A stretch of 31,302 bases of DNA from Eledone cirrhosa (lineage: Eukaryota), in NCBI GenBank assembly GCA_964016885.1, contig CAXHJY010001383.1, forward strand, positions 1 to 31,302. The letters are read 5' to 3'. A program made the translations under genes and the position numbers. Of this stretch, positions 1 to 30,657 are shown piece after piece. The stretch's first letter is position 1, and each line of letters starts with the position of its first letter. Below the pieces are notes generated by a model. The model searched no databases, was not told where the DNA came from, and saw only the letters and a program-made list of their open reading frames with translations.

Positions 1-7590
<7,590 letters not shown>

Positions 7591-10920: not shown

Positions 10921-13900
10921 TGCACAAACTGCCATTGCTGCCATTAACAAACAAACAAATTAACAACACACCAAAATAATTAAAACCATCCACTCTCACC
11001 TCAACATTTTTGCTTAACGCCCAAGGCATCAGCCCTTCCACCAATACTCAAAAATGGAAGATCAAATTCCTGGAGGACTGGGTTGATGTCCATCCAAACC
11101 ACATCCCTTTCTTCGTCCTCACTGAAACCCATCTCAGTAACCTCCACTTGGAAGCCGAGGTGAAAGTGAAAAATTTCAAAGCCATCCGTGTTGATCGCGC
11201 TGGCAGAAGAAAGGGTAGGACTGCCATTTATGTCCATAATTCTTTCTCAACAGAGGCTATGAACATATTTACTAATGGATACTGCGAAGCAGTCACTGTA
11301 TTCAGTCAAACCAACAACCTAATAGTAGTTGGGCTCTATAGGCCACCCCAAACACCTCTACCATGCTTCAAGGAATGCCTCAACAGTATAAAGTGTTTCA
11401 TCCAAGAGTGTCACCCTGACAACATCTTAATGATGGGGGACTTCAACCTCCCCGGAGTTGACTGGTCCACAAACAGCCTGCCATCAGGTTCTTCTGCCTC
11501 AACCTCTGACAGGGAAGCAGTGGAATCGCTTCTTGACTTCATGGATGATTTCTTCCTGTCCCAACTGGTGCTCGAACCAACGAGGTGCCACAAAAACGTC
11601 CTAGACTTAATTTTCAGCAATCACACTGACACTATCCACAATATTGCAGTGGAGAAAACTCTACTCTCTGATCATGACATGGTTCTCTGTGATCTGAGAT
11701 TCCACCGTCCAATATACAAACCCAATGTCATCTCTCCTGTCCATCCGTTTGACGCTATGGATTTCCACAATGCAAACTGGGAAGCGATCAGTCATGATCT
11801 TGCAGATGTCGACTGGTCCTTCACACACACTCACACACCCACTAACATCAAAAAGTCCTGGCAGACACTGTTACAAACATATGTGCAAAACACACCCCAT
11901 TAAGAACTATAAACAAATCTAAGAGCAGAATCCCTAGAAATAGAAAAACGCTCATCAGGAAAATTAAGAGAACTAACAAAAAAATCAACAAGCTGAAATA
12001 CTGTCAGCAGCATCACATCAACTTGACTGCCATTTCATCACTAGAGATTAAAAAACATAACCTCCAAAACAATATGATGTCTATCATCAACAATCAGAGA
12101 AGAGCTGAAGAGGCCTGGGCCATTGAGAAGATCAAACTCAATCCCAAAGTGTTCTTTTCATTTGCAAAAAAACACAAAATCACTGGCTCTACTGTTGGCC
12201 CTCTAATTGATGAAAATGGCACTCTTCAAGACAATGCTAAAACCATGGGTGAGATACTGCAGAAACAATACTGCTCTGTTTTCAGCAATCCTGATATGGC
12301 CGATCTGGGCTGTATCGGAGATGTTACTCCCCATTACACCTTATCGGACATAACGTTTGGCGCCCCTGATGTCTTAGCGGCAATAAAGGAAATCAAGCAT
12401 AATTCAGCAGTAGGTCCCGATAGGTTCCCTGCTTGTGTCTTGAAGGCGTGTCAACACCAACTTGCATCTCCTCTTGCCAATCTGTGGTAGGACTCACTGG
12501 ATGCTGGATATGTGCCAGAAAACCTTCTATCCCAGTCTGTTGTCCCAGTTTTCAAAAAGGGAAACAAATCCCTTGCCGTGAATTACCGTCCAATCTCACT
12601 CACCTCTCATATCATTAAGGTATTTGAGAGAGTGGTGAGATCGTGAATGACTCACTTCGTTGAGAGTAACAATATGCTGAACTCCAACCAGCATGGATTC
12701 CGTAATGGAAGGGATTGACTGACGCAGCTACTGCATCACTTTGATGACATTTTGAGAGCCTTGGGAGAGGGTTCCAACACTGATGTTATCTACCTTGATT
12801 TCAGCAAGGCCTTTGACAGGGTTGATCACAACATTCTACTGAGAAAGCTGTCCAATATTGGTGTCACTGGAAAGCTGCTGCAGTGGATCAAGAGCTTCCT
12901 GTCAAACAGAACCCAACATGTTGTAGTCGAAGGAGTCAAATCCAGTCCAGCCAAAGTCAGTAGTGGGGTCCCACAAGGCACTGTGTTGGGCCCACTTCTC
13001 TTCATCATCTATATTAATGACATCACTGACATCATCAAACACAGCAACATTAGAATTTTCGCTGATGATTCCAAGCTGCAAAAGGTCATCAATGGCGTGG
13101 ATGACCGGATAAGCCTTCAGTCAGACCTACTGGCTGTTACCCAATGGGTGGAAAAGAACAACATGTTATTGAACGAAGACAAATTCGAACTGATCCACTT
13201 TGGAAAAGAGGATGCTCTGAAACTCCCGTACTCCCTTCTCTCCAGTGAAACTCTCGTGGCATCTAACAACATCAGAGACTTGGGAGTAACCGTGGACAGC
13301 AACATAAACTGGGCCACGCATATAAGCAGCAAAGTTGACATGGCCCGCAGAATGTGTTCCTGGATCCTCAGAACCTTCCAGTCGAGAGATTCCCACACCA
13401 TTATCCTTCTCTTCTCTACTTTTGCCCGACCACACCTTGAATACTGTTGTCCACTGTGGTCTCCCCACACGAAACAAAGTATCATGAAACTTGAAGCTCC
13501 CCAAAGAGCAATCACGAAAAAGATAGATGGCATGTCAGACCTTGACTACTGGGGTTGACTAGAAAAGCTGAAACTTTACTCACTCCAACGTCGCCGTGAG
13601 CGTTATATTATCTGCATGATGTGGAAAATGTTTCATCAGCACTGCTCAAATGATGTTGGCATCACCTTCAAAATACACCCAAGGCTTGGGCCCCGTGCTA
13701 TCCGTCCCAATAAAAATCTAAATCGCAACTCATAACAACAATACGGCACAATTATTTCACCTCAATTGGCCCTGCTCTCTTCAACATCACACCAGGACAC
13801 GTCAAAACAGAAACTGACCACTCAAAATTCAAGAAGTCTTTGGACAAATTCCTCCAAGTAATCCCGGACAAACCACCCACACCCGGATATGTCTCCGCAA

Positions 13901-15669: not shown

Positions 15670-15806
15670 CTATAATCTATACATATATATACATCTATCT
15701 ATCTATCTATACATATATATACATCTATCTATCTATCTATCTATACATATATATACATCTATCTATCAATCTATACATATACATCTATCTATCTATCTAT
15801 CAATCT
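15670..15806. repeat. (ATCT)n/(AT)n microsatellite
   Basis: Direct inspection. Confidence 0.92.
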
Positions 15807-16789
15807 GGGCGCCTGGCACACCGAGTGTGCCCAGGCGCTCACGGCTCTCTGGCAGGCGGACCCGGCTGTCAGTGGAGAATCCACCTCGTCATTCTATAGA
15901 GGGCTGGTGGTTAGCAGGTGCGATGACGCCCTCGGAGAAGCCCTAGGCATGGAGGAAGACGAACTGGCCAACCTGTTCGGTAGGACATTCAGCCCGGGAC
16001 CCATGGATAACTTCCAGAGGTCCCTGGCCTGGCAATGCTACAGAAGGGCTCTGCCCGTTCGAGAAAGGCTCTACAGACACGGGCGCCCGGGTAGGGACCC
16101 ATCGAAAAAGATCTGTCCCAGATGCGTGTGCGACGAGGAAACCGTTGCACACGCATTGGTACACTGCTCGGGCATTGCCGATCTGTGGGGCTATGTCGAA
16201 CAACTGCTGTCAAGGGTGGGACCGATCCGGTTGACCACCGAGTCTATTGTAACGATCAAGTCGCCTCCCCTCTTCAAAAACGAAGGAGAGGCGGTGTTTC
16301 TGAGCGTAATAGCCATGGCGAAAGAGGTTGTATGGTGGACGCGTCTGAAAGGACTGAGGTCAGACACCTTTCTCTCTGGCCAACAACTGGTCCGTTTCTT
16401 CCGATATCATTTCGGAAGAAGGATCAGGATGGAGAGAGAGGTGCTGCACCCCAGGCGTTTTTATGAAAGATGGGTGAAAGTGGCAAGAATGGCCCGTGTG
16501 AATGGGCCTTCACTCTACATCAGACTATAGGTGAGGAAGATGAAAGACCAAGGGAGCACCCCTTCTCTGTGCTCCTGAGGAGCAGGGTTGCACACTTTTT
16601 TTCGGGGGTGTGTGCAACCCCCCAAGGCGCCTCCTCTCTATTGAGGACTTTGTTATAAATTTTATTTTTTGTTATATTTTATTTTATATATTGTTATTGA
16701 CTCCTCCTTATTGAGGACGCCTTGTTTTGTAAACTCCCCCCATTGTACTTGTCCCACTTTTGATGCCCTGGTGGCAAATAAAAGAAACA
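15805..16789 (+). mobile_element. Tx1/L1-clade LINE copy 1 (5'-truncated, ~1 kb)
   Basis: Near-identical to 19245-20234; encodes [18 protein letters not shown] zinc knuckle, stop at 16530. TSD TATCTATCAATCT at 15794-15806 and 16790-16802. Confidence 0.92.
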
Positions 16790-16944
16790 TATCTATCAAT
16801 CTATATATATATATACATCTATCTATATATATATATACATCTATCTATATATATATATACATCTATCTATATATATATATACATCTATCTATCTATCTAT
16901 ATATATATATACACGTCTATCTATCTATCTATCTATATATATAT

Positions 16945-19900
16945 TAGTGGGGGACTGGAATGGTATCCTAGATGCACGCTGGGACTACGTAGGGGCCTGC
17001 CCCGATAGAGAGGGGTGTAATAGCCTCAAAGGGTTAATCGGTCGATTTGACCTGGCCGATAGATATCGACTAGATTTTCCGACTGCGCCAACCTGGACTT
17101 GGGCAAATCGTAGCGGATCATCTAGGTCGTACCTAGATAGGTTCTTAGTTAGAATTAAGGATAAGGACTTTTTAAGTTGTCCAAAAATGCGCATGGTTGG
17201 CTATTCAGACCACAAATTAGTGACCTGCATGGTCAACCTTGACAGAACTCATAGACAGGGCCCCGGTTACTGGAAGTTCAACTTGTCCTTGCCGGCAAGT
17301 AGAGCCTACAGGAATCGGATTAGTACGTTAGTTAAGGAACGGTTGACTGGAGCGATCGTCAACAGCAGGTGGTGGGTATCTCTAAAGAGAGAGATTAGAG
17401 TAGTCTCGATAGAATTTAGTAAGGTTCTAGCTGCGGATAGGAATAGGAAGGAAAGGGAGCTAATAGATAGAGTAGAAGAGGCAATTAGAAGCGGCGACGT
17501 GGCCAGAGTGCTAGCGTCGAGAACGGCTTTGAGCCAGTTTTTCGACGCGAAGCACGAAGGCTGCGTTGTCCGAAGTAAAATACGTGCTCTAGGGAACGAG
17601 GGGACCAAAGCTGTTAGCTGGGCCCGCGTGACAGAGGCCAACAGTGGAACTAAATCCACCATCCAGTCTTTGCGAGACCTGGATGGACGGGCGATTCTTG
17701 AGCCTAAGCAGATGTGTGAGGCCTTTCAAAGGCACTTTGCCCGACTGTTCGGGAGGGGCGGGGAGCCGGTTGGGAACGTGGACTTCGGTCCATACCTCGA
17801 CGGCCTGCCGCGCCTCTCGGACAGGGAGGCGAAGTCCTGCGAGGAGCCGATTTCGGCCGCTGAGATAGAGGACGTGCTGAGCCAATGCGGCAAACGCAAA
17901 TCCCCGGGTCTCGATGGTCTTCCTTACGAATTATATCTAGCTATGCCGGACTTGTTCTCCGATCTCCTCGAGGCGGTCTACTGCAACTGGCAACAGAACG
18001 GGAGAATTCCCTGTACTGTGACCAAGGGCGTAGTCACGCTAGTGAGGAAGGACGAGAACAAGGGGGACGAAATAAGTAACTTCAGGCCCATAACACTGCT
18101 AAATACAGAGTTACAGATTTTGGCCAAGGTGCTAGCAAAGAGGTTGGCGCTTGTCGTTGGCAACCTGGTGGGAGATGCGCAGACATGCGCTATCCCGTCC
18201 AGGTCCATCCATGACAACCTCCACCTCATGCGATACATCATAGAGAGGGTTGGGAACGAACCCGGCTTTGGTGGGGCTCTGATCAACTTGGATCAATCTA
18301 AGGCGTTCGATAGGGTCGACCATGGTTACCTGGATGCGGTGCTAGCGGCGGCAGGCTTCGGACCCGTTTTCAGGGGCTGGATCACTGCTATGCACAGCAG
18401 CCGCATCTGCTCTAGGGTCAAGGTGAACGGCTACCTTTCGGAGCCGTTCAAAATCGCGCGGTCCATCCGACAAGGGTGCCCTCTCTCCTCCCTTCTGTAT
18501 GTGTTGACTCTCGAGCCACTACTGCGGAAGTTGGAGTTGTTGCAGGGCATCCCTTTGGAACCGGGATTGCGGAAAGCGGTGTCGGCCTACGCTGATGACG
18601 TGACAGTAATGGTGTCGACGGCCTCCGAAATCGAGGCGGTCGGCACCTTACTGGAGGAGTACGAAAAGTTCACAGGGGCTAAGCTGAACCGGGACAAGTC
18701 GATCGGTTTGCAACTCGGCACGTGGAGGGGCAGACCGATGCCCTCCGATAGCGTCGTCGGACGCTGGACGGAGGGCCCGGTGAAGTTGCTCGGGGTCTGG
18801 TTCGGACCGGACCTCCAGGTGGAGAAAAACTGGGCGGAGGTTACGAACAGGGTATTTGCACTGACCCAGAAGTGGGCCAGTTGCAAACTATCCCTGAAAG
18901 GTCGGGCGGAGGTGGCGAACACCTACATAGCGTCCGTCATCTACTACCGCCTGACCGTAGTGCCCTGCCCAAGGGAAACCCTCACCAAGATGGAGCGCGC
19001 GCTCTTCCAATTCCTTTGGAAGAGGCGGGCTCCTATGGTGAGGAGATCCATCTGCTGTCAACACCCTTCGAAAGGAGGGCTGGGGATGCCGTGGCTAATG
19101 ATGCGTAAACACGCATTAAGGCTACGGCACCTCTACGTATTCCTCACCGGACAACCGGTGTGGGCCTCGTTTGTGAGACGAACCTTTCCCAGACTCGTCT
19201 CACTCACCGAGCTGCAATCCTGGGTCAAGCAAAGACCGAGAAAACTGGGCGCCTGGCACACTGAGTGTGCCCAGGCGCTCACCGCCCTCTGGCAGGCGGA
19301 TCCGGTTATCAGTGGAGACTCCACCGCAACATTCTATAGAGGGCTGGTACGCAGCAGGTGCGACGACGCCCTCGGAGAAGCCCTAGACATGGAGGAGGAC
19401 GAACTGGCCAGCCTGTTCGGTAGGACATTCAGCCCGGGACCTATGGACAACTTCCAGAAGTCCCTGGCCTGGCAGTGCTACCGAGGGGCTTTACCCGTTC
19501 GAGAAAGGCTCTACAGACACGGGCGCCCGGGTAGGGACCCCGCCAAAAAGATCTGTCCCAGATGCGTGTGTGACGAGGAAACCGTTGCACACGCATTGGT
19601 ACACTGCTCGGGCATTGCCGATCTGTGGGGCTACGTCGAACAACTGCTGTCAAGGGTGGGACCGATCCGGTTGACCACCGAGTCTATTGTAATGATCAAG
19701 CCGCCTCCCCCCTTCAAAGATGAAGCAGAGGCGGTGTTTCTGTGCGTAATAGCCATGGCGAAAGAGGTTGTATGGTGGACGCGTCTGAAAGGACTGAGGT
19801 CGGGCACCTTTCTCTCTGGCCAACAACTGGTCCGTTTCTTCCGATATCATTTCGGAAGAAGGATCAGGATGGAGAGAGAGGTGCTGCACCCCAGCCGTTT

Positions 19901-20234
19901 CTATGAAAGATGGGTGAAAGTGGCGAGAATGGCCCGTGTGAATGGGCCTTCACTCTACATCAGACTATAGGTGAGGAAGATGAAAGACCAAGGGAGCACC
20001 CCTTCTCTGTGCTCCTGAGGAGAAGGGTTGCACACTTTTTTCGGGGGTGCGTGCGACCCACCAAGGCGCCTCCTCTCTATTGAGGATTTTGTTAAAAATT
20101 TTATTTTTTCTTATATCTTATTTTATTTTTATATTTTGTTATTGCCTCCTCCTTATTGAGGACGCCTTTTTGTGTAAACTCCCCCCTTTGTACTTGTCCC
20201 ACTTTTGATGCCCTAGTGGCAAATAAAAGAAATA
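16945..20234 (+). mobile_element. Tx1/L1-clade LINE copy 2 (truncated within the endonuclease)
   Basis: Open ORF2 plus ~260 bp 3'UTR ending AATAAAAGAAATA; flanked by a duplicated microsatellite variant containing ACACGTCT. Confidence 0.95.
16947..19970 (+). CDS. LINE ORF2, 5'-partial: APE C-terminal half, RT, CCHC zinc knuckle
   Basis: 1007 uninterrupted codons with [70 protein letters not shown] and C-x2-C...H-x4-C. The GTG is not a true start. Confidence 0.93.
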
Positions 20235-20326
20235 TATCTATATATATATATACACGTCTATCTATCTATCTATATATATATATACATCTATCTATCTATC
20301 TATCTATATATATATATACATCTATC

Positions 20327-20357
<31 letters not shown>

Positions 20358-20653
20358 CTATCTATCTATATATACATCTATCTATCTATATATATATATA
20401 TATATATACATCTATCTATCTATATATATATATATACATCTATCTATCTATATATATACATCTATCTATCTATATATATATATATATACATCTATCTATC
20501 TATCTATCTATATATACATCTATCTATCTATCTATCTATATATACATCTACATCTATCTATCTATATATACATCTACATCTATCTATCTATATATACATC
20601 TACATATCTATCTATACATCTATCTATCTATATATACATCTATCTATCTATAT
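20235..20653. repeat. (ATCT)n/(AT)n microsatellite
   Basis: Direct inspection. Confidence 0.95.
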
Positions 20654-20935
20654 AATGGCCCGAGTGAATGGGCCTTCTCTCTATATCAGCCTGTAGGTTG
20701 AGGAAAAGAAGGAGGAGAGGAAAGGAGTACAAGCTCTTCGTACTCCTGGAGATGAGGGTTGCACATTTTTTTCGGGGGTCTGTGTTACCCATATAAACTG
20801 TCTCCCTCTATTGGGGAAAATCGACTAACTTTTAAATTCCATCTGTGATAACATTTTACACGTTTTTATTGTATGTAAACTTCCCCCTTTGTATTTGTCC
20901 CCTTCTTTTGTGCCCCTGTGGCTAATAAAGAAATA
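20654..20935 (+). mobile_element. Tx1/L1-clade LINE copy 3 (diverged subfamily, 3' end only)
   Basis: Begins ATGGCCCGAGTGAATGGGCCTTCTCTCTATATCAGCCTGTAG ([13 protein letters not shown], compare [13 protein letters not shown]); ends AATAAAGAAATA-TATCTAT. Confidence 0.88.
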
Positions 20936-21355
20936 TATCTATCTATATATATACATCTATCTATCTATATATATAGATCTATCTATCTATATATATACAT
21001 CTATCTATCTATATATATACATCTATCTATCTATATATATACATCTATATATATATATAAATTTAAACAAAATGAAAACGAAATTTCATTTCTCACTCTT
21101 AGTATGGCACTTACTTAAATGTAAGTATGCATGTATACGTACATACATATATGTATACAGACGTACAGTAGCATGCACATATATATATATATATATACAT
21201 ATATATATACATACAGGTACACATACATATATGCACGTATCAGTTTAGCGGCGCTAACGTCGCTTTGTTCGTTTGTAAACAAACTGAACAGCCTGAATTT
21301 ATGCCATACGGTGTTAAGGCAACCACGTCACCTTTTTGTTCAACACTGACACAGG

Positions 21356-21400
21356 AACGATGTACTAGTTTCAAGCTTGTTAGCTATCATCAGCACCGTT
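21356..21400 (-). ncRNA. Type I hammerhead ribozyme, copy 1
   Basis: Minus strand AACGGTG-CTGATGA-TAGCT-AACA-AGCTT-GAAA-CTAG-TA^CATCGTT. Confidence 0.85.
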
Positions 21401-21817
21401 TACCCATCTGCCAGATAGTTGAACGTTCGAAAGTATATACTTTCCTTATGAAAATTAACGGCTGAGCAGCCTAATTTGCATATTGAGTGAGTTAAATCGG
21501 TCAGGCATACCGAAAACGATAAATTGAAACAAAATGAAAACGAAATTTCATTTCTCACTCTTAGTATGGCACTTACTTAAATGTAAGTATGCATGTATAC
21601 GTACATACATATATGTATACAGACGTACAGTAGCATGCACATATATATATATATATATACATATATATATACATACAGGTACACATACATATATGCACGT
21701 ATCAGTTTAGCGGCGCTAACGTCGCTTTGTTCGTTTGTAAACAAACTGAACAGCCTGAATTTATGCCATACGGTGTTAAGGCAACCACGTCACCTTTTTG
21801 TTCAACACTGACACAGG

Positions 21818-21862
21818 AACGATGTACTAGTTTCAAGCTTGTTAGCTATCATCAGCACCGTT
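21818..21862 (-). ncRNA. Type I hammerhead ribozyme, copy 2
   Basis: Identical 45 nt core, 462 bp from copy 1. Confidence 0.85.
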
Positions 21863-22547
21863 TACCCATCTGCCAGATAGTTGAACGTTCGAAAGTATAT
21901 ACTTTCCTTATGAAAATTAACGGCTGAGCAGCCTAATTTGCATATTGAGTGAGTTAAATCGGTCAGGCATACCGAAAACGATAAATTGAAACAAAATGAA
22001 AACGAAATTTCATTTCTCACTCTTAGTATGGCACTTACTTAAATGTAAGTATGCATGTATACGTACATGCATATATGTATACAGACGTACAGTAGCATGC
22101 ACATATATATATATATATATACATATATATATACATATGCATACAGGTACACATACATATATGCACGTATCAGTTTAGCGGCGCTAACGTCGCTTTGTTC
22201 GTTTGTAAACAAACTGAACAGCCTGAATTTATGCCATACGGTGTTAAGGCAACCACGTCACCTTTTTGTTCAACACTGACACAGGCTGTTCAGTTTGTTT
22301 ACAAACGAACAAAGCGACGTTAGCGCCGCTAAACTGATACGTGCATATATGTATGTGTACCTGTATGCATATGTATATATATATATATGTGCATGCTACT
22401 GTACGTCTGTATACATATATGTATGTACGTATACATGCATACTTACATTTAAGTAAGTGCCATACTAAGAGTGAGAAATGAAATTTCGTTTTCATTTTGT
22501 TTCAATTTATCGTTTTCGGTATGCCTGACCGATTTAACTCACTCAAT

Positions 22548-22555
22548 ATGCAAAT
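22548..22555 (+). promoter_or_regulatory. Octamer motif ATGCAAAT, present upstream of each hammerhead
   Basis: Perfect octamer ~110 nt upstream of the predicted cleavage site; function inferred only. Confidence 0.35.
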
Positions 22556-22628
22556 TAGGCTGCTCAGCCGTTAATTTTCATAAGGAAAGTATATACTTTC
22601 GAACGTTCAACTATCTGGCAGATGGGTA

Positions 22629-22673
22629 AACGGTGCTGATGATAGCTAACAAGCTTGAAACTAGTACATCGTT
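22629..22673 (+). ncRNA. Type I hammerhead ribozyme, copy 3
   Basis: CTGATGA at 22636-22642 and GAAA at 22657-22660; helix I AACGGTG/CATCGTT, helix II AGCT/AGCT; GUA triplet with predicted cleavage after 22666. Confidence 0.85.
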
Positions 22674-23096
22674 CCTGTGTCAGTGTTGAACAAAAAGGTG
22701 ACGTGGTTGCCTTAACACCGTATGGCATAAATTCAGGCTGTTCAGTTTGTTTTCAAACGAACAAAGCGACGTTAGCGCCGCTAAACTGATACGTGCATAT
22801 ATGTATGTGTACCTGTATGCATATGTATATATATATGTATATATATATATATATATGTGCATGCTACTGTACGTCTGTATACATATATGTATGTACGTAT
22901 ACATGCATACTTACATTTAAGTAAGTGCCATACTAAGAGTGAGAAATGAAATTTCGTTTTCATTTTGTTTCAATTTATCGTTTTCGGTATGCCTGACCGA
23001 TTTAACTCACTCAATATGCAAATTAGGCTGCTCAGCCGTTAATTTTCATAAGGAAAGTATATACTTTCGAACGTTCAACTATCTGGCAGATGGGTA

Positions 23097-23141
23097 AACG
23101 GTGCTGATGATAGCTAACAAGCTTGAAACTAGTACATCGTT
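23097..23141 (+). ncRNA. Type I hammerhead ribozyme, copy 4
   Basis: Identical core 468 bp after copy 3; predicted cleavage after 23134. Confidence 0.85.
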
Positions 23142-23375
23142 CCTGTGTCAGTGTTGAACAAAAAGGTGACGTGGTTGCCTTAACACCGTATGGCATAAAT
23201 TCAGGCTATTCAGTTTGTTTACAAACGAACAAAGCGACGTTAGCGCCGCTAAACTGATACGTGCATATATGTATGTGTACCTGTATGCATATGTATATAT
23301 ATATGTATATATATATATGTGCATGCTACTGTACGTCTGTATACATATATGTATGTACGTATACATGCATACTTA

Positions 23376-24254
23376 TATATATATATACATCTATATATAT
23401 ATATATATATACATCTATCTATATATATATATACATCTATCTATCTATATATATACATCTCTCTATATATATATACATACATCTCTCTATATATATATAC
23501 ATACATCTCTCTATATATATACATCTATCTCTCTATATATATACATCTATCTCTCTATATATATACACATCTATCTATCTATATATATATACATCTATCT
23601 ATCTATATATATATATATACATCTATCTATCTATATATATATACATCTATCTATCTATATATATATACATCTATCTATCTCTATATATATACATCTATCT
23701 ATCTATATATATATACATCTATCTATCTATATATATATACATCTATCTATCTATATATCTATTGAGGATTTTGTTAAAAATTTTATTTTTTGTTATATCT
23801 TATTTTATTTTTATATTTTGTTATTGCCTCCTCCTTATTGAGGACGCCTTTTTGTGTAAACTCCCCCCTTTGTACTTGTCCCACTTTTGATGCCCTAGTG
23901 GCAAATAAAAGAAACTTATCTATCTATATATACATCTATCTATCTATATATACATCTATCTACATCTATCTATATATATATACATCTACATCTATCTCTA
24001 TATATATACATCTACATCTATCTATATATATATACATCTACATCTATCTATATATATATACATCTACATCTATCTATATATATATATACATCTATCTATC
24101 TATATATATATATACATCTATCTATCTATATATATACATCTATCTATCTATATATATATATACATCTATCTATCTATATATATATATACATCTATCTATC
24201 TATATATATATATACACATCTATCTATATATATATATATATATACACATCTATC

Positions 24255-25396: not shown

Positions 25397-25652
25397 TTGT
25401 ACTTTGGGAGGGTCTTGCTGCCAATAAAAACACACAAAGACAAGAGGGTTTAAAATAGAACAAAGAGGAGACACAAAGTAACAAAGGTAGTCACCGAAGA
25501 GGTCACAGTTTGTGTGACGAAAGTGCTTTGACAATCTACAACTAAACAACCATCTGGTTGTTAAACTAACTGACAGGAAATTATAATAAATTGAAATGAA
25601 ACTCATCTGGTATGTGTGTTTTTATTGGCTGCATGACCCTACCAAAGTATAA
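25397..25652 (+). mobile_element. Element with 40 bp inverted ends and a degenerate hammerhead (Penelope-like remnant)
   Basis: 25397-25436 is the inverse of 25613-25652 with 4 mismatches; internal GGTAGTCA-CCGAAGA-GGTCACA..TGTGAC-GAAA-GTGCTT-TGACAATC. Confidence 0.65.
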
Positions 25653-25778: not shown

Positions 25779-25978
25779 GGTGCTATCTAAGGTTTCAAGT
25801 CCCAAATTTGACCATAACTCCAGAAAACAAGAGGCATCAAAATAATAGCCTTTCTTCAGGCACAAGTTTATAAAATCTTATAAACTCATATTAATGTCTG
25901 AAGAAAGGTCACTATTTTGACGCCTCTTGTATTCTGGAGACATGGTCAAATTTGGGACTTGAAACCTTAGGTAGCACC
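25779..25978. repeat. Inverted repeat with ~84 bp arms, each resembling a hammerhead with a long helix II
   Basis: 25779-25862 pairs with 25895-25978; each arm reads CTGAAGA...GAAACCTTAG(G/A)TAGCAC. Confidence 0.75.
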
Positions 25979-26624: not shown

Positions 26625-26689
<65 letters not shown>

Positions 26690-26692
<3 letters not shown>

Positions 26693-26879
26693 CGAAGGAA
26701 ATGTGGTAAGGAACCAGGTGGACCATAACGCACCAAAGTACTCAATACTTGAGGTAGTAGAGTGGGTAATGGGAACCAGTAAGACCCAGACAGCTGAGCT
26801 CAAGCCGTTTCGACGGCTAATTCTGGACAGAATTAGCCGTCGAAACGGCTTGAGCTCAGCTGTCGGGGTCTTACTGGTT

Positions 26880-26883
<4 letters not shown>
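26690..26883 (-). mobile_element. ~195 bp fold-back element in (TA)n, copy A
   Basis: 54 bp arms at 26772-26825 and 26828-26881 with a 2 nt loop, plus an 80 bp unpaired tail; homologous to 30421-30620. Strand is assigned by treating the tail as the 3' end. Confidence 0.8.
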
Positions 26884-26918
<35 letters not shown>

Positions 26919-27639: not shown

Positions 27640-27775
27640 CTGTGTGTCCTGGGTTCAATAGGGGGTAACCACAGTAAGTAACTTACTCAATACATTAGTA
27701 GAGTGTAAATATAATGTTTAATATAGAAATGGCTTCTACAGGACTAGAACTGTTTCATTCAAAAGAAATCATGCA
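27640..27775 (-). mobile_element. Short dispersed repeat fragment, possibly a Penelope-like 3' end
   Basis: TTCTACAGGAC.AGAACTGTTTCATTC is shared with 14137-14163; minus strand reads ATGA-TTTC-TTTT-GAAT-GAAAC-A-GTTC. Confidence 0.45.
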
Positions 27776-27822
27776 TGGTCCTTCATAATTTCTTAATTAG
27801 CAACAAGGTCTTGTATATATAG

Positions 27823-30391: not shown

Positions 30392-30420
<29 letters not shown>

Positions 30421-30423
<3 letters not shown>

Positions 30424-30618
30424 GGAACAAGTATGACCCCGACAGTAGAGCTCAAGCCGTTTCGACGGCTAATTCTGGACGAGTCCAGAATTACCGTCGA
30501 AACGGCTTGAGCTCTGCCGTCGGGGTCATACTTGTTCCTATTACCCACTCTACTACCCTAAGTATTGAATACTTTGGTGCGTTATGGTCCATCTGGTTCC
30601 TTACCACATTTCTTTCGT

Positions 30619-30620
<2 letters not shown>
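30421..30620 (+). mobile_element. ~200 bp fold-back element, copy B (opposite orientation to copy A)
   Basis: Arms at 30421-30480 and 30483-30541 with a GA loop; tail 30542-30620 is the inverse of 26690-26768. Confidence 0.8.

Positions 30621-30657
<37 letters not shown>

Follow-up and report, generated by a model that had tools for sequence, protein, structure and literature searches.

How retrozymes reach new loci is an open question, and it is raised in concrete form by a 31,302-nt stretch of the Eledone cirrhosa genome (assembly GCA_964016885.1, contig CAXHJY010001383.1, positions 1 to 31,302; here called the window), which holds near positions 21057 to 23375 a tandem repeat with one hammerhead ribozyme motif per unit. 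The window is a whole, microsatellite-rich 31-kb contig of a 3.0-Gb genome. Our reading, to which we give about three chances in four, is that the array is a young two-armed retrozyme insertion into (TA)n, made by a Penelope-type reverse transcriptase (RT)-endonuclease that used a circular RNA as template on each side of a break. The family gives genomic footprints of each step, namely two start sites, priming at both ends, several laps round one edited molecule, and a hybrid with a candidate helper. All evidence on this repeat is genomic DNA sequence, and at that level it has all the features expected of a metazoan retrozyme.

The repeat unit and its hammerhead motif

Unit coordinates (q) are counted from window position 22667 (q1), the first base past the predicted cut. 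The ribozyme features of the window are:

22606..22690, + strand: type I hammerhead with extended helix I; core 22636, predicted cut after 22666
23074..23158, + strand: type I hammerhead; core 23104, predicted cut after 23134
21801..21885, - strand: type I hammerhead; core 21855, predicted cut at 21825
21339..21423, - strand: type I hammerhead; core 21393, predicted cut at 21363
22667..23134, + strand: predicted monomer RNA, cut to cut, 468 nt
22787..22902, + strand: long TA-rich hairpin (about q121-236), length-variable, holding most of the A>G changes of sister insertions

The sequence-only reading had described one type I hammerhead per 462-468 bp unit, and this is what we find: four identical motifs, two per strand, with two consecutive complete motifs in each arm of the array, full monomers of 468 and 462 nt, and two arrays with periods of 462 and 468 called by Tandem Repeats Finder. 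A hammerhead descriptor gave 2 + 2 matches in the window, one per unit, and none in 20,000 dinucleotide shuffles of the unit. The structural details hold as well: helix I has the 7 bp claimed for it, one of them a G.U (the seventh pair is not conserved across the family), helix II has 4 bp with a U.U at its base in place of the usual G-C, and the window motifs carry the GUA triplet. Helix III is just 2 bp around the palindrome ACUAGU, which is able to pair between two copies. The usual metazoan type I hammerhead, which is dimer-dependent, is described as having a CUGANGA/GAAA/UH core, a helix I of about 6 bp, a helix II of 4 bp, and a short palindromic helix III (PMC4209133); the window motif fits this definition in its core, helix I, helix II, and palindromic helix III, and, as judged from its letters, is of the dimer-dependent metazoan type. 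The proposed check against Rfam hammerhead models gave the motif weak support, with a single match to HH9 below threshold (18.5 bits vs a gathering score of 52, E-value 0.032), and HH9 models a different hammerhead family than that of the window. Across the whole window, the best 150 of 319 Rfam matches were TA-repeat noise only.

The repeat is non-coding: no stop-free frame of at least 100 amino acids lies wholly inside the array and there is no open reading frame (ORF) in the unit, which lacks the ORF with RT and GIY-YIG endonuclease that marks an autonomous Penelope-like element. Its GC content is 0.34-0.35. The circular monomer is predicted to fold at -153.7 kcal/mol with 68% of its bases paired, a stability reached by none of 60 shuffles and to which the TA hairpin contributes much.

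A genome-wide count, also proposed with the sequence-only reading, returned 23,644 exact matches to a 32-nt core pattern and none to a control; the window's subfamily has 8,300 genomic matches, and the family is dispersed over at least seven chromosome-scale contigs, with units of about 410 to 556 nt (66 full units from 68 stretches). Conservation of the core across copies was likewise borne out. All 12 fixed core positions are retained in 95 of 109 distinct ribozyme copies, and the sole core position that commonly varies is the tolerant N7 (38 T and 71 C among the 109). In the aligned ribozyme helices, 95.9% of cells are paired. Both partners change in two of the helix I pairs, one varying among G.U, U.G, and A-U and the other between U.G and A-U (the second unpaired in 43 rows); because these changes represent few subfamily-level events, the covariation is supportive but thin. 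Set against three subfamily units of 420-430 nt, the ribozyme keeps 34-35 of 37 positions vs 64-66 of 103 for q25-127, and it is the best-conserved part of the unit between subfamilies. The conserved core and thin covariation fit selection on the ribozyme, for which self-cleavage is predicted.

These results support a retrozyme-like family of non-coding tandem units, each with one type I hammerhead, of about 35% GC and of high, dispersed copy number. The description of the monomer as rather long stands only in part: at 420-560 nt it exceeds the 170-400 nt circles of Cervera and de la Pena 2020 (PMC7229834) and is unremarkable within the 51-972 bp reported by Li, Clavereau, and Pollet 2026 (10.64898/2026.07.22.740005).

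Insertion ends and probable Penelope-type mobilisation

The array consists of two divergent arms, 22285->21057 (-) and 22282->23375 (+), both of which run out into (TA)n:

21057..22285, - strand: left arm, 2.65 units; inner (5') end at q8, outer end at distal site B (q310-312)
22282..23375, + strand: right arm, 2.3 units; inner end at q68, outer end at proximal site A (q247)
22282..22285: head-to-head junction of the arms, with 4-nt microhomology
22914..22978, + strand: "tail" between sites A and B (q248-312), whose limits are a putative pair of reverse-transcription starts (mechanism as in PMC11167929)
20933..21058: left target flank, (TA)n/(TATC)n microsatellite
23376..23757: right target flank, (TA)n/(TATC)n microsatellite

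At its outer end the left arm carries the tail (21057-21121); the right arm lacks it there. This one-A, one-B arrangement is a rule in the family, and the window insertion follows it. The first 100 listed core matches formed 58 clusters, all of which were fetched; 30 of the 58 were two-armed and divergent, and one cluster had a convergent neighbour. At all 16 of the loci in this set with both ends strictly classifiable, one arm ended at A (q246-253) and the other at B (q310-312), with no A+A or B+B pair; in the other 14 two-armed loci, one end or both were unclassified. A further 26 loci, none overlapping the first set, gave the same result, A+B at 18 of the 18 with both ends called. Sites A and B lie about 60 nt apart, one per arm. 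In long arrays, with arms of up to at least 15 units, the ends likewise fall exactly at A and B, and the units of the two inverted arms are nearly identical.

The inner ends behave differently from these fixed outer ends. They are scattered, with 3 of 80 falling within 20 nt past the cut (about 3.5 expected), and units are joined seamlessly across the predicted cut site. The scatter implies that the template was continuous across that site. For the junction count, 40 of 129 rows were kept, one of which (L190) is an artefact, and the 89 others, whose gap or overlap exceeded 15 nt, were removed as spurious at the TATA palindrome. Two loci, L118 and L119, have one junction in common, which means that DNA-level duplication does occur. 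In the retrozyme literature, metazoan non-long terminal repeat (non-LTR) retrozymes are expected to show a target-site duplication of more than 4 bp when one is present; at (TA)n targets such a duplication is unreadable, and at L111, where the repeat lies inside a Penelope ORF, we see by eye one of about 9 nt.

An inverted truncated partner copy and a one-sided tail are reported features of Penelope elements (Craig 2021, PMC8557442), and a Penelope protein is described as cutting and extending both strands of AT-rich DNA and as starting at two internal RNA sites that delimit the tail (Frangieh 2024, PMC11167929). Cutting of both strands together with two internal start sites would explain the two-armed A+B architecture. 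The suggestion in the sequence-only reading that Penelope-type enzymes move the repeat is therefore backed by the end structure and by one hybrid copy, and we consider it very probable that this is a retrozyme mobilised by a Penelope-type enzyme.

Which Penelope family would supply that enzyme is a more delicate matter. Penelope-like protein fragments of several families occur in 42 of 117 loci. In the hybrid, L208, one arm is the long end of an autonomous Hydra-clade element, and the other joins a piece of the Hydra ORF, in sense orientation and with one base added, to a single lap of the repeat that ends at site A; the rest of the Hydra element is absent from the locus. The Hydra-clade element is young, with 150 scored matches at 95-100% identity and frames of up to about 800-900 amino acids, and it has its own hammerhead-like motif and (TA)n targets. 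Its two-armed copies showed one short and one long end in (TA)n in 6 of 6 cases, five of which had been selected as divergent pairs. An 809-amino acid frame at L239 has RWK-like and DKT motifs, a CxCX5C linker, and CxxC and CxH in its endonuclease, and by these motifs, read against PMC8557442, the candidate helper is of the Hydra clade. For the Penelope proteins, neither Pfam (the 809-amino acid frame included) nor PDB returned a significant match, and 13 homologues were found at 33-38% identity.

The Hydra assignment has several points against it. L208 is the only direct sense hybrid, one of 42 one-armed arms (those with no element partner), other Penelope-like families are also present in the genome, and we found no sequence common to the unit and the first 900 nt downstream of the endonuclease region in 30 Hydra copies. 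The proposal that a Penelope element would share the ends of the repeat is supported in part, as the Hydra element has a like end pattern and the hybrid exists; the sequence comparison covered that span of the Hydra family, with its terminal repeat compared to the unit by eye. Given a single hybrid and no shared sequence, the young Hydra-clade family as helper is a lead at about even odds. Three further candidates were set aside. An apparent Hydra end 236 nt past the endonuclease is an internal microsatellite, L109 is an unrelated adjacency, and L111, which resembled a hybrid, holds an antisense copy of the repeat within a Penelope ORF, re-mobilised afterwards. The last of these (L111:1250-4310) has the repeat antisense in a Hydra-like Penelope ORF with the short duplication, the whole then apparently re-mobilised as a two-armed chimera.

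Proposed circular templates and competing explanations

The strongest indication of the form of the template comes from L250. The long arm of this array alternates strictly between two units, ABABABABABA, over 11 units, and compared with the unedited unit of the same sub-lineage, their substitutions are A>G on the hammerhead strand in 13 of 13 and 4 of 4 cases (17 of 17). The short opposite arm runs from the end of A into the start of B with the same A>G changes, and both arms terminate in a B unit, at sites A and B. The edit pattern has seven genomic matches, six in L250 and one in a short fragment of an older subfamily (L261:4069-4102) with the same five A>G changes as unit A. This single match points to recurrent editing sites rather than a source array, and as an array the edited pattern occurs nowhere else in the genome. 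L250 is best read as deriving from a single circular dimer of 966 nt, putatively adenosine-to-inosine (A-to-I)-edited, on which both priming events fell in the same unit and from which copying ran for about 5.7 laps in one direction and about 0.7 unit in the opposite one; alternatively, it may reflect later DNA-level amplification of an inserted edited dimer.

Sister insertions tell a related story. Variant 329G>A was traced into 11 further insertions, each of which has its own modal unit length, and L061, L251, L255, and L257 each have an insertion-specific pattern of extra G in the TA hairpin that is common to both arms. Interruptions of the TA hairpin comprise 494 G vs 4 C, which are mostly common by descent and hence not independent events. 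The A>G signal lies in the TA hairpin and L250. On this evidence, we think it likely that at least some insertions were made from a circular template. As a separate observation, an A>T change at q87 (window 22753; L004, L061, L062, L065), in a small hairpin loop, recurs in single units and may reflect either a modified base that was misread or a mutational hot spot.

How such RNAs might be transcribed is suggested by a candidate internal promoter:

23015..23068, + strand: candidate internal promoter, U6-type 12-nt element plus TATA-like palindrome
22547-22600, + strand: further candidate promoter copy
21891-21944, - strand: further candidate promoter copy
21429-21482, - strand: further candidate promoter copy

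The 12-nt element of the unit, conserved across subfamilies, matches an element 77-78 nt upstream of the host U6/U6atac genes, and the transcription start that it implies (q422-427) is just before helix I. Its spacing to the TATA is 43 in the unit vs 47-49 in U6, that is, 4-6 nt shorter, and the T4-T6 runs that follow would hinder read-through by RNA polymerase (Pol) III. A U1/U2 promoter matrix built from eight distinct promoters fails on the unit (-4.6 bits vs 7-25), and the Pol II (U1/U2) reading was rejected on that ground. RNase P gave no information for the comparison. A functional internal U6-like promoter is a tentative candidate, to which we give slightly less than an even chance. Among the host genes themselves (L128-L170, L180), U1/U2 promoters have TCAGT at -56 to -58 with a TATA-like box near -30 in most, and U6/U6atac promoters have an octamer-like 12-mer at -77/-78 with TATA at -30.

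We propose the following route. Arrays would likely be transcribed on the hammerhead strand, possibly from the U6-like element in each unit. Pairing of adjacent hammerheads at ACUAGU is predicted to lead to cutting after GUA, and if axolotl and mussel are a guide, a ligase of the host would then circularise the monomers and dimers. A-to-I editing probably acts on the long TA hairpin; the strand-specific A>G is observed and the enzyme presumed. A Penelope protein would then nick both (TA)n strands and begin reverse transcription at two internal positions separated by about 60 nt, a step for which the end rule is observed here and the biochemistry is published for another Penelope element. Each enzyme would circle its template for a variable number of laps, as strongly indicated at L250, and the two complementary DNAs would join head to head by microhomology, as the observed junctions suggest. 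In its fullest form, which is a toss-up in our estimation, the proposal makes the repeat a self-contained circular RNA parasite with its own promoter, ribozyme, and Penelope loading site in each unit, whose ADAR-edited monomer and dimer circles are rolling-circle copied by a Hydra-clade enzyme pair from both ends of one break, with the edits becoming heritable and seeding sub-lineages.

A number of observations weigh against this route. In the predicted minimum-energy fold, part of the hammerhead core is paired and the structure differs from the active fold, and proximal helix I is disfavoured (pair probabilities of 0.18-0.28); moreover, eight of nine Xenopus retrozyme dimers are reported not to cleave in vitro (10.64898/2026.07.22.740005). 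The strict alternation comes from one locus, L250. Variant 329G>A was rejected as private to L061, as it is a sub-lineage marker with 469 genomic copies, and the private-variant argument was dropped; the other variants of this kind were private among 29 insertions. With the TA hairpin masked, private variants have no strand bias (14 A>G, 17 T>C). The units of the window are mosaic: a 6-nt deletion occurs in both outer units of the left arm but neither in its inner unit nor in the right arm, and the two outermost units have different TA tracts. One monomer circle without slippage would not yield these mosaic units. L200 is also mosaic, with 94A>G in the five outer of eight units, as is L199, where 3 of 17 units, distributed over both arms, have 448C>T; the mosaics at these two loci could mark multimer templates or a mid-run change of template.

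Mosaic units in the window, L199, and L200 are what would be expected if the same element and the same type of enzyme used a long uncut linear (or large circular) multimer as template, the ribozyme being dispensable for insertion. In vitro, hammerhead mutants are reported to have left PAc insertion unaffected, cleavage not being needed (PMC11167929), the indifference of inner ends to the cut site fits a multimer equally well, and homogeneous daughter arrays could serve as sources. In a linear edited multimer, however, the edits of each unit should have arisen independently. L250 instead shows a single edited pair, repeated about 5.7 times and present in no array elsewhere that could have been its source, and sister insertions of the same sub-lineage each have their own G pattern fixed on both arms. 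As a general account we hold the multimer to be unlikely, although it may be the route for some insertions and, given its mosaic units, for that of the window. Growth at the DNA level is the essence of a scenario from Li et al. 2026, in which a satellite derived from a Penelope terminal repeat makes short insertions that expand locally by unequal crossover or slippage with the hammerhead as a passenger. The common junction of L118 and L119 attests to such duplication, 26 of 73 units are non-modal in TA-tract length within their arrays, and an inserted edited dimer could be amplified afterwards. Yet long arrays retain exact A/B ends and near-identical units on both inverted arms, crossover of 97%-identical units need not preserve even register over 11 units, and the supposed passenger is the best-conserved part of the unit, which together make this scenario very unlikely.

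Template jumps do occur, as L208 demonstrates, and the left arm of the window begins 7 nt past the predicted cut, both of which would suit cleaved linear monomers assembled into arrays by successive end-to-end jumps. Against this, inner ends are not enriched at the cut, unit joins across it are seamless, and strict A/B alternation would require ordered jumps between two molecules, so that we hold it to be extremely unlikely. Finally, the window is an entire small, unplaced contig rich in microsatellites, where an inverted array might be an assembly or read-chimera artefact; but the arms are not mirror copies, their ends and variants differ, and the same A+B architecture is found on chromosome-scale contigs, leaving this explanation with a practically negligible probability. 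Copying of a circular RNA from both sides of a (TA)n break remains our preferred account.

Relation to known systems and neighbouring elements

The class to which the repeat belongs, that of the metazoan non-LTR retrozymes, is already known; what is new is that genomic evidence bears with unusual directness on the rolling-circle, Penelope-driven route that has been proposed. The retrozyme papers put forward such copying of circles by Penelope enzymes as a proposal, without demonstrating it in the portions available to us (PMC7229834; 10.64898/2026.07.22.740005). The coral, mussel, and axolotl retrozymes of Cervera and de la Pena 2020 resemble our repeat in having non-coding tandem units with one type I hammerhead each, GC below 50%, and a predicted self-paired circle, and those of mussel, another mollusc, have repeats of 350-390 bp. 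Axolotl HHR_Amex2, an active ribozyme, has the same U.U at the base of helix II as the window motif, and the weak palindromic helix III of the dimer-dependent HHR_Amex1 resembles that of the window (PMC7229834). Expression and cleavage are demonstrated for the retrozymes of that paper, whereas ours is known from its DNA; conversely, the available part of it does not describe inverted, two-armed insertions whose ends are fixed at A and B, nor A>G marks in register. Li et al. 2026 also tie retrozymes to Penelope-like elements, through co-occurrence and terminal-repeat homology, and suggest local tandem growth, with no mollusc among the species sampled in the available text. Here, the link consists instead of an insertion footprint and a hybrid, and no homology to the candidate helper was detected.

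Penelope-like elements themselves (PAc of Poseidon, PMC11167929; Hydra clade, PMC8557442) are described with the same inverted 5'-truncated partner arm, one-ended tail, (TA)n targets, two internal starts, and cutting and extension of both strands; unlike them, our repeat encodes no protein and has arms of up to at least 15 units. Its tail is about 60 nt, vs 30-40 nt in the literature and about 90 nt in the local Hydra element. Newt satellite 2 (PMC2220036) is likewise a hammerhead-bearing tandem repeat with an internal promoter of small nuclear RNA type, reported there to be of the Pol II type, whereas the candidate in our unit resembles the host U6 upstream element, not U1/U2, with its spacing off. 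Among the papers that the literature searches listed, none dealt with cephalopod retrozymes or edited in-register arrays, although the supplements of PMC7229834 and of the 2026 preprint may list such families, and the available text of PMC13282606 makes no mention of ribozymes.

Because the candidate helper is young and has long open frames, the route is testable in vitro. If it is right, A-to-I edits have been fixed in a germline genome, and the tandem and inverted structures of Penelope insertions generally become easier to account for; in the fullest form of the proposal, the genome would also record single RNA molecules and provide a named enzyme-template pair for reconstituting circle-templated retrotransposition.

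Other features of the window are:

65-7589: 7.5-kb compound AT/AC microsatellite
10980-13558, + strand: broken long interspersed nuclear element, endonuclease and RT pieces in separate frames
16782-19970, + strand: non-LTR retrotransposon frame, 1062 amino acids, RVT_1 and zf-RVT
about 25488-25535, + strand: degenerate hammerhead-like motif
25779-25978: 200-bp fold-back element, 83% self-complementary, resembling a miniature inverted-repeat transposable element
26687-26913 and 30392-30623: two copies of a (TA)n-flanked element with a palindrome of about 115 bp
about 27735-27780, - strand: degenerate hammerhead-like motif

The retrotransposon with the 1062-amino acid frame, possibly Tx1/L1-like, has its 3' part repeated at 15802-16944, 20076-20654, about 20655-20930, and 23758-24060; these copies follow one another in tandem within the (TA)n/(TATC)n tract into which the hammerhead repeat inserted. 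The element with the palindrome of about 115 bp also lies beside L109 and L110. By eye, the degenerate hammerhead-like motifs resemble two other families, found in L065/L088 and L019/L021. A second hammerhead family, with a period of 310 nt, adjoins or lies inside insertions of the present repeat at L009, L082, and L120.

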